Below, piece by piece: positions 192 to 5,534 of a DNA stretch of 5,534 nt (position 1 is the first letter of the stretch; every line of letters starts with the position of its first letter). The translations under genes and the position numbers were made by a program. The DNA lies in the IMG/VR virus record IMGVR_UViG_3300022920_000001, positions 1 through 5,534 of that record; one strand, given 5' to 3'. Under the pieces are notes generated by a model. The model was given only the letters and a program-made list of their open reading frames with translations, was not told the origin of the DNA and searched no databases. The stretch comes from a virus.

Positions 192-380
192 ATGTATAAA
201 TTTCTATTAATAGAAATCGCAAAACCAATCATCCGACGTGCTGGAACAGCTATGGGCGCCGCCCTTGTCGGTCTTGGTGTTGCATCAGATCAAGCCATTC
301 AGATTGAAACAGCGTCAATATCGCTGCTGCTAATCATGGCCGATCTAATTTTATCCCATTTAGAAAGGAATAAACCATGA
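192..380 (+). CDS. Small hydrophobic protein, 62 aa, with two short hydrophobic segments and a charged C-terminus (holin-like topology, function unknown)
   Basis: This is the first ORF after the non-coding region. Hydrophobic segments are AGTAMGAALVGLGVA and ISLLLIMADLILSHL, with the tail ERNKP. Its stop overlaps the next ATG (ATGA at 377-380). The Shine-Dalgarno is weak (gagag). Confidence 0.5.
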   Translation: MYKFLLIEIAKPIIRRAGTAMGAALVGLGVASDQAIQIETASISLLLIMADLILSHLERNKP

Positions 381-469
381 AGAACATTCACAACATTGCG
401 CACGGCGCAGTTGCTGGAACCCTCATTTCACTAGCCCTGTTTGGGCCTATGATCATGGGGTTTGTCTAA
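377..469 (+). CDS. Mini membrane protein, 30 aa (MKNIHNIAHGAVAGTLISLALFGPMIMGFV), not in the supplied ORF track
   Basis: Translated by hand. The Shine-Dalgarno aagga (365-369) lies 7 nt upstream of ATG 377. ATG overlaps the upstream stop (ATGA). Its TAA (467-469) overlaps the next ATG (TAATG at 467-471). It has a single hydrophobic helix-length segment and exactly fills the gap between the two neighbouring ORFs. Confidence 0.5.
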   Translation: MKNIHNIAHGAVAGTLISLALFGPMIMGFV

Positions 470-1161
470 TGTTTGGTGCTTTGATGACGTGGTTGGCCAC
501 GCCTGGAGCCTCTACTTTAGTTGGCGCAGGTACTGCAGCGGTGTCTACATACGCTCAGTCAAGAAATGCTGAGAAAATGGCAAACCAAGGCACTGACCTT
601 GGAAAGCTTCGTAGCGAAGCAGAAGCAAACGGCTTTAACCCCCTCACCGTGTTGCGCGCAACTGGTGGTCAAGGGTTTAAGCAAAACGTAAGTATGGGTT
701 CAGGTGCGTTAGCTAGTGCATCGTTTTTTAACGCTTTTGCAGGATTGGGTCAAAACATTGCCCAAGCAAAACAGCAAGAAGCAACATTGAAAAACACGTT
801 AGCATCTACAGCTTATTACACAGCGCAATCACGTGCTTTGTCAACAAGCGCGGTTTCTCAGGTTGCGGCTATACCCGACAATATTATTGCTTCAATACCA
901 GCAGCCTCACCTGTTACGACCAGCAAGTTGGCCGTTCACGGTTCAACAGGTCATGTGGTCGATCCCAAGCTTCATTATTTATACGAAGTTTATGTAAAGT
1001 CAGACGGTTCTACAGGTACCCGTATCGCAGGTGACGATTGGGGTGAACAGCTGGTTAATATGTCTACAATAGCGCTTGACGAAGTAGCGCGTAGTAAACG
1101 TGCCGCTTCGGGATGGCTTTCTAAGCCTTATCTCGAATCAGGCCAATTTGATCCCTTTTAG
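469..1161 (+). CDS. Putative DNA pilot / minor capsid protein (phiX H or gokushovirus VP2 analogue), 230 aa
   Basis: The N-terminus is hydrophobic and Gly/Ala-rich (MFGALMTWLATPGASTLVGAGTAAV). It is followed by a charged helix and an ANGFNPLTVL motif reminiscent of the GxNP motifs in microvirus pilot proteins. Composition is Ala/Ser/Gln-rich. It is the second-largest structural-block ORF and is adjacent to the capsid gene. Confidence 0.7.
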   Translation: MFGALMTWLATPGASTLVGAGTAAVSTYAQSRNAEKMANQGTDLGKLRSEAEANGFNPLTVLRATGGQGFKQNVSMGSGALASASFFNAFAGLGQNIAQAKQQEATLKNTLASTAYYTAQSRALSTSAVSQVAAIPDNIIASIPAASPVTTSKLAVHGSTGHVVDPKLHYLYEVYVKSDGSTGTRIAGDDWGEQLVNMSTIALDEVARSKRAASGWLSKPYLESGQFDPF

Positions 1162-2956: not shown

Positions 2957-3484
2957 ATGAAAACGTTGAAAAACGGTCCACTATCCGCGTGGAAACAAGT
3001 CGAGGCTGGCCGCGTTATTGAGTTTCTCTCAACTAAACCGCGCCATGTTAAATTTCAAATTACCGCTAACTCGCCTGTCGAGATTTGGGCGGCGTCTGAC
3101 GAAGAAATGAGCGATGGTGTGCTTATTGGCGCATCAGACGAAAAAGTAGCTGTGGAATACACAGCAAACGGCACGAGCTATGTCTTGATCAAAGCAGAGA
3201 AAAAAGCAGCCGTATATATAAACGCAGCAGACGTTGACCAAACGGTGCCTCAAGGCGAGAAACCAAGTTTCACAAGCATTGAGCCACGGGTGCGTAATAA
3301 CACTGAGTTTGATCGTATGATGCAGTACGTAAAACTCAATGAGCAGCGCCGCGAAGCGGAGCTAGCCACAGAGCGCGCAGCATTGCGCGCAGAGATGGCT
3401 AAACTGGGTTCAGCTACCCCTGTAGCGGAACCAGTACCAGAGGAGTCTACAGACGATGCTGAAGGAGCTGAGACCACTTCTTAA
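2957..3484 (+). CDS. Hypothetical protein, 175 aa (possible scaffolding or accessory structural protein)
   Basis: I prefer ATG 2957, with Shine-Dalgarno aagga (2945-2949) 7 nt upstream, over the TTG 2891 start given in the track. No motif was recognised. The N-terminal two thirds look beta-rich. The C-terminus has a charged helix (EQRREAELATERAALRAEMAKLG) and an acidic tail (PEESTDDAEGAETTS). It lies between the capsid and peptidase genes. Confidence 0.75.
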   Translation: MKTLKNGPLSAWKQVEAGRVIEFLSTKPRHVKFQITANSPVEIWAASDEEMSDGVLIGASDEKVAVEYTANGTSYVLIKAEKKAAVYINAADVDQTVPQGEKPSFTSIEPRVRNNTEFDRMMQYVKLNEQRREAELATERAALRAEMAKLGSATPVAEPVPEESTDDAEGAETTS

Positions 3485-4064
3485 GCTCCTAAGGTGGGTG
3501 CGGTTATTTGACCGCATCCACAAAGGCCCAAAAAGTGAGTTCGTTTCTACGGATCACATAGAGGCCGCAAGGAGTTTGGCTGACCCAGACGCTTCAGAAA
3601 AGCTATGGGTAAAAATAGAAGCCACAAACAACGATTATAGATATTCACACCCCGAAATAGTCATATTTTGGAAGGCCATGTTTAAACACATGAAGGCACG
3701 CGGCATACCTGTACGCGCCTTTGAATTTACGCGTTCAATGGAACGTCAAAACGAGTTGTTCGATACAGGTCGCACGAAAGCACGTGCCGGCCAAAGTCCA
3801 CATCAAATACACACTTTTCGTATGGAGTCGAAAGACCCAATCACGGGAGTTGTGTTAAAAACGTATAAAGATTGCAGCGCGGCCGTGGATATAATCCACG
3901 CTACACGCGGTTGGAATCTAACGAAAAAAGAGTGGGATGTCGTTGGCGCTATCGGCAAGGAAATCGCACGTAAAAGAAACATTGACATTGAATGGGGCGG
4001 GGACTGGCAGTTCTACGATCCCGCACATTGGCAATTAAAAAGTTGGAAGACGCTACTGCACTAA
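3456..4064 (+). CDS. Zinc D,D-/L,D-peptidase of the M15 (VanY / phage L-alanoyl-D-glutamate endopeptidase-like, LAS superfamily) type, a putative endolysin, 202 aa
   Basis: The motif order is typical of M15 cell-wall peptidases: TRSMERQNELF, then AGQSPH (His116, nt 3801-3803), then AAVDIIH (Asp145, nt 3888-3890), then WGGDW...DPAHW (His191, nt 4026-4028). Shine-Dalgarno aggag (3441-3445) lies 10 nt upstream of ATG 3456. The ORF overlaps the upstream ORF by 29 nt. Confidence 0.85.
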   Translation: MLKELRPLLKLLRWVRLFDRIHKGPKSEFVSTDHIEAARSLADPDASEKLWVKIEATNNDYRYSHPEIVIFWKAMFKHMKARGIPVRAFEFTRSMERQNELFDTGRTKARAGQSPHQIHTFRMESKDPITGVVLKTYKDCSAAVDIIHATRGWNLTKKEWDVVGAIGKEIARKRNIDIEWGGDWQFYDPAHWQLKSWKTLLH

Positions 4065-4179: not shown

Positions 4180-5259
4180 ATGTGTATTTGCCCAAATACT
4201 TTAGATTGCGGTACTGAGGTTGCGTGTCGCGAATGCTGGCAATGCCGAAAACGAAGAGTCAACGATCTCGTTGGAAGATGCATTGCCGAAAGTAAGTTTT
4301 CAGAAAAAACTTACGCTATAACGTTAACGTACAAGCCCACAGAGGGCGTTAACGCAGTGACATTGATTTATAAAGACGTCCAAGATTTTCTCAAAAGATT
4401 ACGTAAGAAATATAAATGTCGCTACATCGTCACTGGAGAATACGGAAGTGCGAAAGGGAGAGCTCATTGGCACATAATTGTATTTTTCAAAGACAATTAC
4501 CCGGAGGTCGACACAAACAAACGGGTTGATTGGAAGTATTGGCCGCACGGCCTTGTATATTTCCAAGAACCCGATTGGAAAGGTTTTGAATACTGTTTGA
4601 AATACGTCCTGAAAGATCAGACGTCACGAACAGCAGACAGCCACTTGGCGATGTCTAAAAAACCTCCACTTGGCGCAGAGTATTTTGAGTGGCTAGCGGA
4701 TGAACACGTGGCCCAAGGCCTCGCTCCGCAAACGTACTTCTACAAATTTGGAGACGTACGGGACGCCAAAAACCGAGACAAAAGCTTCATAATGACAGGT
4801 AAAACAAAGGAAAACTTTATGGAAAGATTTCTTCAAAAATGGGTTGAGCAATATGATTCTGAACCCTTATCTGAGATTGTAGACGAATATTTCGATAAAA
4901 TCACAGAAATAGAATATACCGATGAAGAGCTGATCAAGCGATTACATTATAAGCCCGTCAGATATACCTCCCCAGCCGCTCAGCAGCGAGAAGCTGCGCA
5001 CAATCCTATGGATTACGCAATTCTTCACGAATTAGTTTACCGCGGCATACCGCTTGCGGTGTGGGAGTATGACGACAAATTTCATATCATAACGGAGAAC
5101 GACGAATGGCAAGAAGATCGAAAAGAAGTAGTCGAAGAAATCAAAAAACGGTCCAGAACCCTACGCAAGCGCAGCGCCAGCGAAATACGGCGCAAAGAGT
5201 GGCAAGAATTGGAGAACAATTCAGAGGGTATAGCCCTCTCGCCACAGGAGTACGCGTAA
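4180..5259 (+). CDS. Rolling-circle replication initiation protein (HUH endonuclease; phiX A / gokushovirus VP4 family), 359 aa
   Basis: Motif I is AITLTY. Motif II is GRAHWHIIVF (HWH at nt 4465-4473). Motif III has paired catalytic tyrosines, YCLKYVLK (nt 4591-4605), matching the YxxKY arrangement of phiX174 protein A. The N-terminus has a Cys cluster (C2, C4, C10, C16, C19, C22). Shine-Dalgarno gaggt (4167-4171) lies 8 nt upstream. Confidence 0.95.
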   Translation: MCICPNTLDCGTEVACRECWQCRKRRVNDLVGRCIAESKFSEKTYAITLTYKPTEGVNAVTLIYKDVQDFLKRLRKKYKCRYIVTGEYGSAKGRAHWHIIVFFKDNYPEVDTNKRVDWKYWPHGLVYFQEPDWKGFEYCLKYVLKDQTSRTADSHLAMSKKPPLGAEYFEWLADEHVAQGLAPQTYFYKFGDVRDAKNRDKSFIMTGKTKENFMERFLQKWVEQYDSEPLSEIVDEYFDKITEIEYTDEELIKRLHYKPVRYTSPAAQQREAAHNPMDYAILHELVYRGIPLAVWEYDDKFHIITENDEWQEDRKEVVEEIKKRSRTLRKRSASEIRRKEWQELENNSEGIALSPQEYA

Positions 5260-5429
5260 GCACTCCAAGCGCCGCCGTAGCACCTCCTGAAAAGGAAATA
5301 GCGAAGCGAAAAAAACCCCATAATAAAGAATGGTCAACGAAGTTGCGGTTAAAGTGCAAGGGAAAGCCCAAAAGAAACAAGCCGAAAGGCGCAGGTGCGG
5401 GCACAAGGGAGTTCATACCGTGGTGTTAA
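5106..5429 (+). CDS. Candidate overprinted gene: 107-aa highly basic protein in the +1 frame over the Rep 3' end, extending across the circular junction
   Basis: Shine-Dalgarno ggag (5094-5097) lies 8 nt upstream of ATG 5106. The ORF overlaps Rep by 154 nt, then stays open for 170 nt through otherwise unassigned sequence. It ends at TAA 5427-5429, which is circular coordinate 20-22. It is very Arg/Lys-rich. Caveat: the region is purine-rich, which keeps several frames on both strands open by composition alone. Confidence 0.3.
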   Translation: MARRSKRSSRRNQKTVQNPTQAQRQRNTAQRVARIGEQFRGYSPLATGVRVSTPSAAVAPPEKEIAKRKKPHNKEWSTKLRLKCKGKPKRNKPKGAGAGTREFIPWC

Positions 5430-5534
5430 CATAACAAATAGACTACTAAATCTAGTGAGTATGAAAAAAGTGTTTTACTATCTACAGAAAGTATGAAACA
5501 CAATATACAGCAGAAACGAATCCACAAAACGCTA
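5408..5534. repeat. Terminal redundancy copy 2 (wrap-around of the circular genome)
   Basis: Exact 127-nt match to 1-127. The match runs to the last base of the window, as expected for an assembly or linearisation overlap. Confidence 0.97.

Follow-up and report, generated by a model that had tools for sequence, protein, structure and literature searches.

Two short genes, ORF62 and ORF30, lie directly upstream of the DNA pilot protein gene in the marine microvirus genome analysed here, and both are genuine, conserved and translationally chained membrane mini-genes. Judged from its sequence, ORF62 is a candidate holin for the M15 endolysin of the same genome, which is its most likely function and one to which we give about an even chance. 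The most economical reading of ORF30, and a tentative one, is that of a candidate single-helix partner or regulator. That the two together form a membrane module giving the cytoplasmic M15 peptidase access to the cell wall is a claim that we place slightly below even chances.

The window, that is, the whole stretch of DNA analysed (5,534 nt), begins and ends with the same sequence: positions 1–127 and 5408–5534 are identical, an exact terminal redundancy of 127 nt. The record is therefore a closed circle of 5,407 nt and a complete microvirus genome; its class in IMG/VR is complete, with direct terminal repeats. All sizeable genes lie on the + strand, with the following features.

192–380, + strand: ORF62, 62 aa, membrane protein and candidate holin.
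365–369, + strand: AAGGA, Shine-Dalgarno-like, with purine-rich equivalents in all relatives.
377–380, + strand: ATGA overlap of the ORF30 start and the ORF62 stop, translational coupling.
377–469, + strand: ORF30, 30 aa, single-helix membrane peptide and candidate holin partner or regulator.
467–471, + strand: TAATG overlap, in which the ORF30 stop is joined to the pilot ATG at 469.
469–1161, + strand: DNA pilot protein (VP2/H-like), the last gene of the chain, with profile matches and homologues annotated as DNA pilot protein.
1237–2901, + strand: major capsid protein, with 71 microvirus capsid genes found by tblastn.
Ending at 3484, + strand: 197-aa protein.
3456–4064, + strand: M15 metallopeptidase (endolysin), with a PHROG endolysin match at 7e-18 and weak Pfam matches to Peptidase_M15_4 and VanY.
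4180–5259, + strand: Rep.
5106–5429, + strand: highly basic 107-aa ORF overlapping the 3' end of Rep.

The closest isolates are the Roseobacter RCA phages CRPss-151, -152, -153 and -155, whose capsid proteins are ~75% identical to that of the window; the CRPss phages were placed in the subfamily Occultatumvirinae by the paper describing them (PMC11499846). The major capsid protein (1237–2901) has no Pfam or PHROG match, and this capsid lineage is uncovered by the profile libraries. The C-terminal F-x-P-W-C motif of the 107-aa ORF also occurs in CRPss-251, a Rhizobium phage and Tortoise microvirus 70, and the equivalent g10 product of phage Ebor is present in virions (PMC11980548); the ORF probably encodes a DNA-charge-neutralising virion protein.

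The initial annotation had described a chain of two coupled membrane-protein genes running into the pilot gene, and its coordinates all hold: ORF62 at 192–380, the ATGA at 377–380, ORF30 at 377–469 and the TAATG at 467–471. Also borne out are the Shine-Dalgarno-like AAGGA of ORF30 (365–369), which lies within the end of ORF62 and 7 nt before the ATG, the two uncharged hydrophobic stretches of ORF62 (~17–30 and 40–54, the second broken by D51) with their charged C-terminal tail, and the single hydrophobic helix of ORF30, which reaches the C-terminus of the peptide. The further argument that an ORF filling the gap between its neighbours exactly is unlikely to arise by chance fails on a single sequence, as 100 ORFs in the window reach 20 aa or more. 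With short frames this common, and with the antisense frame over ORF30 open too, the fit to the gap is weak evidence. This antisense frame (388–456 of the window, − strand) is stop-free in 57 of 59 relatives; most likely this reflects which codons a hydrophobic helix uses, with no gene behind it.

Both ORFs are intact in all related marine genomes examined, including the 18 that were read in detail. The dN/dS values are below 1 and indicate purifying selection on both ORFs. For ORF62, the Nei-Gojobori ratio is 0.03–0.2 (0.08–0.2 within clades), and dN between clades is only 0.1–0.2 while synonymous sites are saturated. For ORF30, the ratio obtained with the same method is ~0.15–0.4 between clades, with dS near saturation, and reaches 0.45–0.9 inside one clade, a value that is noisy because the differences are very few. 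Overall, we regard ORF62 as almost certainly a real gene and ORF30 as very probably one.

The way in which the genes are joined is also conserved. At the first junction, the ATGA overlap is found in two clades, a third clade has an 8-nt overlap with a TTG-started ORF62, and CRPss-251 has a 14-nt overlap, and start/stop coupling is kept across these three junction designs. At the second junction, TAATG or TAAATG is present in 18 of 18 genomes, even with a differing N-terminus of the pilot protein. An ORF62 homologue lies upstream of the pilot gene at 76 loci, and a hydrophobic ORF30-type mini-ORF stands between the two in all 62 marine-clade loci. A profile search recovered ORF30-family ORFs at 68 loci, corresponding to 59 distinct DNA sequences, 54 of which have exactly 31 codons. 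In some genomes, ORF62 and ORF30 are separated by an insert, namely a 67-aa soluble ORF in L092 and a 78–93-aa ORF in L094 and L095, and both genes are unbroken; because they survive this rearrangement, ORF62 and ORF30 are separate units. The inserted ORFs (L092:515–718, L095:213–494 and L094:32–268) are soluble and acidic, measure 67–93 aa and are likewise joined to their neighbours by overlaps. Three other loci carry a third hydrophobic mini-ORF of 32–33 aa between the ORF30 homologue and the pilot gene (L050:1992–2090, L091:5144–5245 and L096:1854–1955); its C-terminus is basic, and it would probably have the opposite orientation in the membrane. In GenBank, the ORF62 homologue is annotated as hypothetical. 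Standard annotation misses the 30–31-aa gene. Of the five records for the closest isolates, four leave it out, namely those of CRPss-151, -152, -153 and -155 (L001:1616–1711 and the same place in L002–L004), and CRPss-251 annotates a 29-aa ORF30 homologue.

ORF62 is a member of a large family of ~60-aa proteins found almost only in microviruses. When a profile of the window clade was searched against 1.84 billion representative proteins, 217 relatives were found at E ≤ 1e-3, almost all of them 57–70 aa long, and cluster look-ups placed nearly all of these on contigs of at most 8 kb, the size of a microvirus. A few members are located in genome contigs of Roseobacter, Phaeobacter and Mesorhizobium; these copies may be prophages. 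Scans of genome contigs for the bacterial homologue P0045 returned nothing, and a homologue search with the family member P0117 returned only P0117 itself. Similarly, tblastn with the family against 50,697 phage records found microviruses only, with no tailed-phage homologue and no Pam3. In Rhizobium, tortoise and flying-fox microviruses, the gene of this family stands immediately before the pilot gene or overlaps it.

The family has a common layout, which was read from 61 members. Residues 1–14 are amphipathic and are followed by Arg-Arg at 15–16, an uncharged, Gly/Ala-rich stretch at 17–30 (mean Gly/Ala/Ser/Thr fraction of 0.57 across the family), an acidic segment at 31–39, a stretch at 40–54 that is hydrophobic except for D51, and a basic tail. 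P12, R16 and G18 are invariant, and R15, G29, D51 and L52 are nearly so. Among these 61 members, Lys and Arg are confined to positions 2–16 and 56–62, mainly 59–62, where their fractions are 0.95, 0.72, 0.44 and 0.39; R59 is conserved in 89% of members. ORF62 therefore has the hydrophilic, charged C-terminal tail expected of a holin, and its charge pattern looks like that of a predicted N-in/C-in membrane hairpin under the positive-inside rule. AlphaFold2, run on the alignment, gives two helices, 2–27 and 32–59, with a mean pLDDT of 89.5. At 14 and ~15 residues, the hydrophobic stretches are short for segments that fully span a membrane, and the second contains D51. Searched with Foldseek against viral structures, the model of ORF62 had no named match.

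ORF30 begins with a short polar segment containing a Lys, its helix bears a GxxxG motif, and a conserved ALFGP-type motif lies close to the end. Its predicted C-terminus would end in the membrane or barely emerge beyond it. The ORF30 family is confined to the marine clade; homology searches gave no database lead, and its ESM Atlas match is at chance level. GxxxG-type spacing is also found in the first helix of ORF62, and packing between the helices of ORF62 and ORF30 would be plausible.

Two kinds of search link ORF62 to a family that curators call holin, Pfam PF23987 (Phage_holin_10, the Pam3 gp28 family). For ORF62 itself, the score is 15.6 bits (E 0.017), or 14.8 bits when taken from the genome scan; both are below the curated cut-off of 27 bits, and ORF62 does not qualify as a member. 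Matches to PF23987 were obtained for 9 of 10 close relatives and then for 23 of 61 and 14 of 67 distant members (37 of 128 in the wider family at E ≤ 0.1), with a best E of 3.3e-6, and any other Pfam family was matched by a single ORF62-family member at most. The window-clade profile had also recovered, at E 3e-7, a member (P0117) for which a PF23987.2 label is precomputed. Of the 30 ESM Atlas clusters nearest to ORF62, 17 are described as Pam3-gp28 family putative phage holin (score 0.90, 182 shared features). PHROGs and NCBIfam returned nothing for ORF62 or ORF30. The PF23987 proteins (~50–60 aa) and the ORF62 family are alike in size and two-helix layout, whereas the ORF62 family occurs in microviruses beside the pilot gene rather than in a tailed-phage lysis cassette. 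In the literature searched, we found no experiment behind the holin label of Pam3 gp28, and the Pam3 structure paper is silent on gp28 and on holins. These matches suggest a relationship between ORF62 and the curated family that is weak but specific.

The initial annotation had argued that a cytoplasmic M15 endolysin needs a route across the inner membrane, and the comparison of homologues agrees with it. The peptidase has no signal or SAR segment, and the maximum 19-residue hydropathy is at most 1.35 in 24 of 24 homologues; with no hydrophobic segment, the M15 peptidases cannot export themselves. A holin is expected to have a partner endolysin without an export signal of its own, and this is the case here. 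The claim that ORF62 and ORF30 are the only obvious candidates likewise stood, as a scan of + strand ORFs of at least 20 aa (17-residue hydropathy window, at least 1.6) identified them as the only hydrophobic ORFs on the coding strand. Among other genomes, a 66-aa ORF that follows the Rhizobium phage endolysin was considered as an alternative holin and rejected, as it is not hydrophobic. A holin gene is also expected beside its endolysin gene, and ORF62 (192–380) is not: it lies ~3 kb from M15 (3456–4064), with the pilot, the capsid and the 197-aa gene between them. This distance and the adjacency to the pilot gene are unlike most lysis cassettes and count against the holin reading.

Across 25 diverse genomes, the ORF62 family and M15 occur together in 18, both are missing from three (CRPss-154 and two Ciona-gut microviruses), M15 occurs without the family in four, and the family never occurs without M15. 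A further 32 relatives of the Ciona-gut genomes, with capsid identities down to 50%, lack both and keep the pilot gene, which brings the combined tally to 18 genomes with both, 35 with neither, none with the family alone and four with M15 alone. On the capsid tree, however, the state of M15 changes only twice and that of the ORF62 family three times. With only two M15 changes, the co-occurrence has no statistical weight, though it is in the expected direction; an independent-contrast test of ORF62 against M15 yields two contrasts only and cannot reach significance.

In three of the four genomes with M15 and without the family (Tortoise microvirus 70, a rat microvirus and ICBM5), an unrelated ORF with a single helix ends at the pilot start; it may be a replacement for ORF62. 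These ORFs are L021:4858–5091, L099:4646–4834 and a 41-aa ORF ending at 484 in L111, the first two being clearly similar. The M15-less Ciona-gut clade has no conserved membrane mini-gene abutting the pilot gene. Separately, small ORFs with lipoprotein-like signal peptides (lipobox L-x-G/A-C) lie directly upstream of the pilot start, or overlap it, in several genomes of the clade without M15 and ORF62 (L139:2401–2520; L142, where the ORF crosses the record end upstream of the pilot gene at 239; L143:1287–1424; L112:4102–4473). These ORFs are candidates for another function, in lysis or in exclusion.

Class II holins such as the pinholin S21 68 of phage 21 are ~60–70 aa long and have two helices, an N-in/C-in topology and a charged C-terminal tail, and pinholins act with SAR endolysins. 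ORF62 has a similar size, a similar predicted hairpin and a charged C-terminal tail, and its first helix is rich in Gly, Ala, Ser and Thr like a SAR-type TMD1. In contrast, it has no sequence similarity to S21 68, the window contains no dual-start motif, and the M15 peptidase lacks the N-terminal SAR domain, or any signal segment, that a pinholin system would have in its endolysin. In mycobacteriophage Ms6, the adjacent genes for Gp4 and Gp5, a two-helix and a one-helix membrane protein, jointly set lysis timing. ORF62 and ORF30 are likewise adjacent genes, for a predicted two-helix and a predicted one-helix protein, but ORF30 is far smaller, and there is no homology. The small proteins E (lysis) and K (a small membrane protein) of phiX174 are also hydrophobic and have no similarity to ORF62 or ORF30. 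Moreover, the genes for E and K overprint other genes, and E needs no endolysin, whereas ORF62 and ORF30 occupy their own space except for overlaps of 1–4 nt and M15 is present. Within the Microviridae, the related phage Ebor (Tainavirinae), an alphaproteobacterial microvirus, encodes both a peptidoglycan hydrolase, whose activity was verified enzymatically, and Gp1, a predicted membrane protein of 45 aa with no assigned function whose gene lies upstream of the pilot gene (PMC11980548). Gp1 was not detected in virions, which speaks for the holin reading. Another gene separates it from the pilot gene, and the ORF62 profile found no family match in ICBM5, the Tainavirinae genome searched. Spanin identity was ruled out for the two ORFs, since there is no lipobox, ORF30 ends with its helix and the loop of ORF62 has only ~9 residues.

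The position of the two genes suggests another role, in which ORF62 and ORF30 would be membrane cofactors of the pilot protein that act in its insertion, chaperoning or assembly at the inner membrane, or in DNA delivery. This role would explain the translational chaining to the pilot gene, and it agrees with the coupling to the pilot start in 18 of 18 genomes, with the family gene overlapping or directly preceding the pilot gene in the Rhizobium, tortoise and flying-fox microviruses, and with the distance of both genes from M15. However, the pilot protein is conserved without either mini-gene in CRPss-154 and in a clade of 34 genomes, and some genomes have unrelated genes standing between ORF62 and ORF30. 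Furthermore, mass spectrometry of Ebor virions found the pilot protein and not the small membrane protein, which belongs to a different family and, like other small hydrophobic proteins, is easily missed (PMC11980548). The initial annotation had named DNA delivery alongside the pilot protein as an alternative; it is weakened by the persistence of the pilot protein without the mini-genes in two M15-less lineages, and we consider a cofactor role unlikely, although it is the main rival of the holin reading. Superinfection exclusion or host takeover is a frequent role of small phage membrane proteins in general, and ORF62 and ORF30 could be membrane peptides of this kind, unrelated to lysis; the occurrence of the family in a few Phaeobacter, Mesorhizobium and Roseobacter contigs, possibly prophages, is consistent with this. 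We judge this role improbable, as it leaves unexplained both the restriction to M15-carrying genomes and the link to PF23987 and the ESM Atlas clusters, and as the strong conservation resembles that of a core gene rather than an accessory one.

For ORF30, the stop/start overlaps at both of its ends, its fixed length (31 codons in 54 of 59 variants) and the lack of a database lead are also what would be seen if it were a mere translated spacer that brings ribosomes to the pilot start and yields a functionless peptide. Against this, the GxxxG motif, the ALFGP-type motif and the N-terminal Lys persist from clade to clade despite saturation at synonymous sites (dN/dS ~0.15–0.4), and the terrestrial clade joins ORF62 directly to the pilot gene with no spacer ORF, so that we give the spacer little probability. 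In the last reading, ORF62 or ORF30 would by itself bring about lysis like protein E of phiX174, as a membrane helix that blocks cell-wall synthesis, and M15 would be left for another step, e.g. entry. E-type lysis is the only lysis mechanism proven in the Microviridae (PMC3394797), and ORF30 consists of one membrane helix, in which a Pro is conserved. However, there is a conserved peptidase, neither ORF lies nested within a second gene, and both are absent exactly where M15 is absent, which makes an E-type protein very improbable.

For the preferred reading of ORF62 as a holin and ORF30 as its partner, we propose the following mechanism. The two would form a small, late-expressed membrane module. 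ORF62 would insert into the inner membrane as an N-in/C-in helical hairpin and accumulate there; on reaching a critical level, it would form oligomers that permeabilise the membrane and let the M15 peptidase reach the peptidoglycan. ORF30 would be a tail-anchored, GxxxG-bearing helix lying against ORF62 that, as a co-holin or antiholin, adjusts the formation of holes, and the chain from ORF62 through ORF30 to the pilot gene would tie the dosage of both to late structural gene expression. Here, we infer the permeabilisation of the membrane, the contact between ORF62 and ORF30 and the role in timing. More broadly, and more speculatively, microviruses of the Occultatumvirinae type might use canonical holin-endolysin lysis rather than single-gene lysis, with a multi-part holin made up of ORF62, the 30–31-aa ORF30 and, in some genomes, a third helix of 33 aa, all chained to the pilot gene such that the output of late structural genes would set lysis timing.

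Roux et al. reported that some microviruses encode an M15 peptidase and set this against the single-gene lysis of phiX174 (PMC3394797). The papers on the CRPss phages (PMC11499846), on ICBM5 and on the Rhizobium phages name a lysin and no holin, the Ebor paper (PMC11980548) names no holin either, and in the literature searched we found no earlier description of a Microviridae holin. The candidate holin-type system described here is probably new for this phage family and otherwise of a known kind. If the proposed role holds, few known holin partners or antiholins would be as small as ORF30. In many environmental microviruses there is an M15 or other peptidoglycan hydrolase whose crossing of the inner membrane has so far been unexplained, and a family of ~60-aa predicted hairpins that occurs only where the endolysin is present offers a concrete holin candidate. 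Collectively, these observations suggest that a 5.4-kb ssDNA phage may share the two-step lysis logic of tailed phages.
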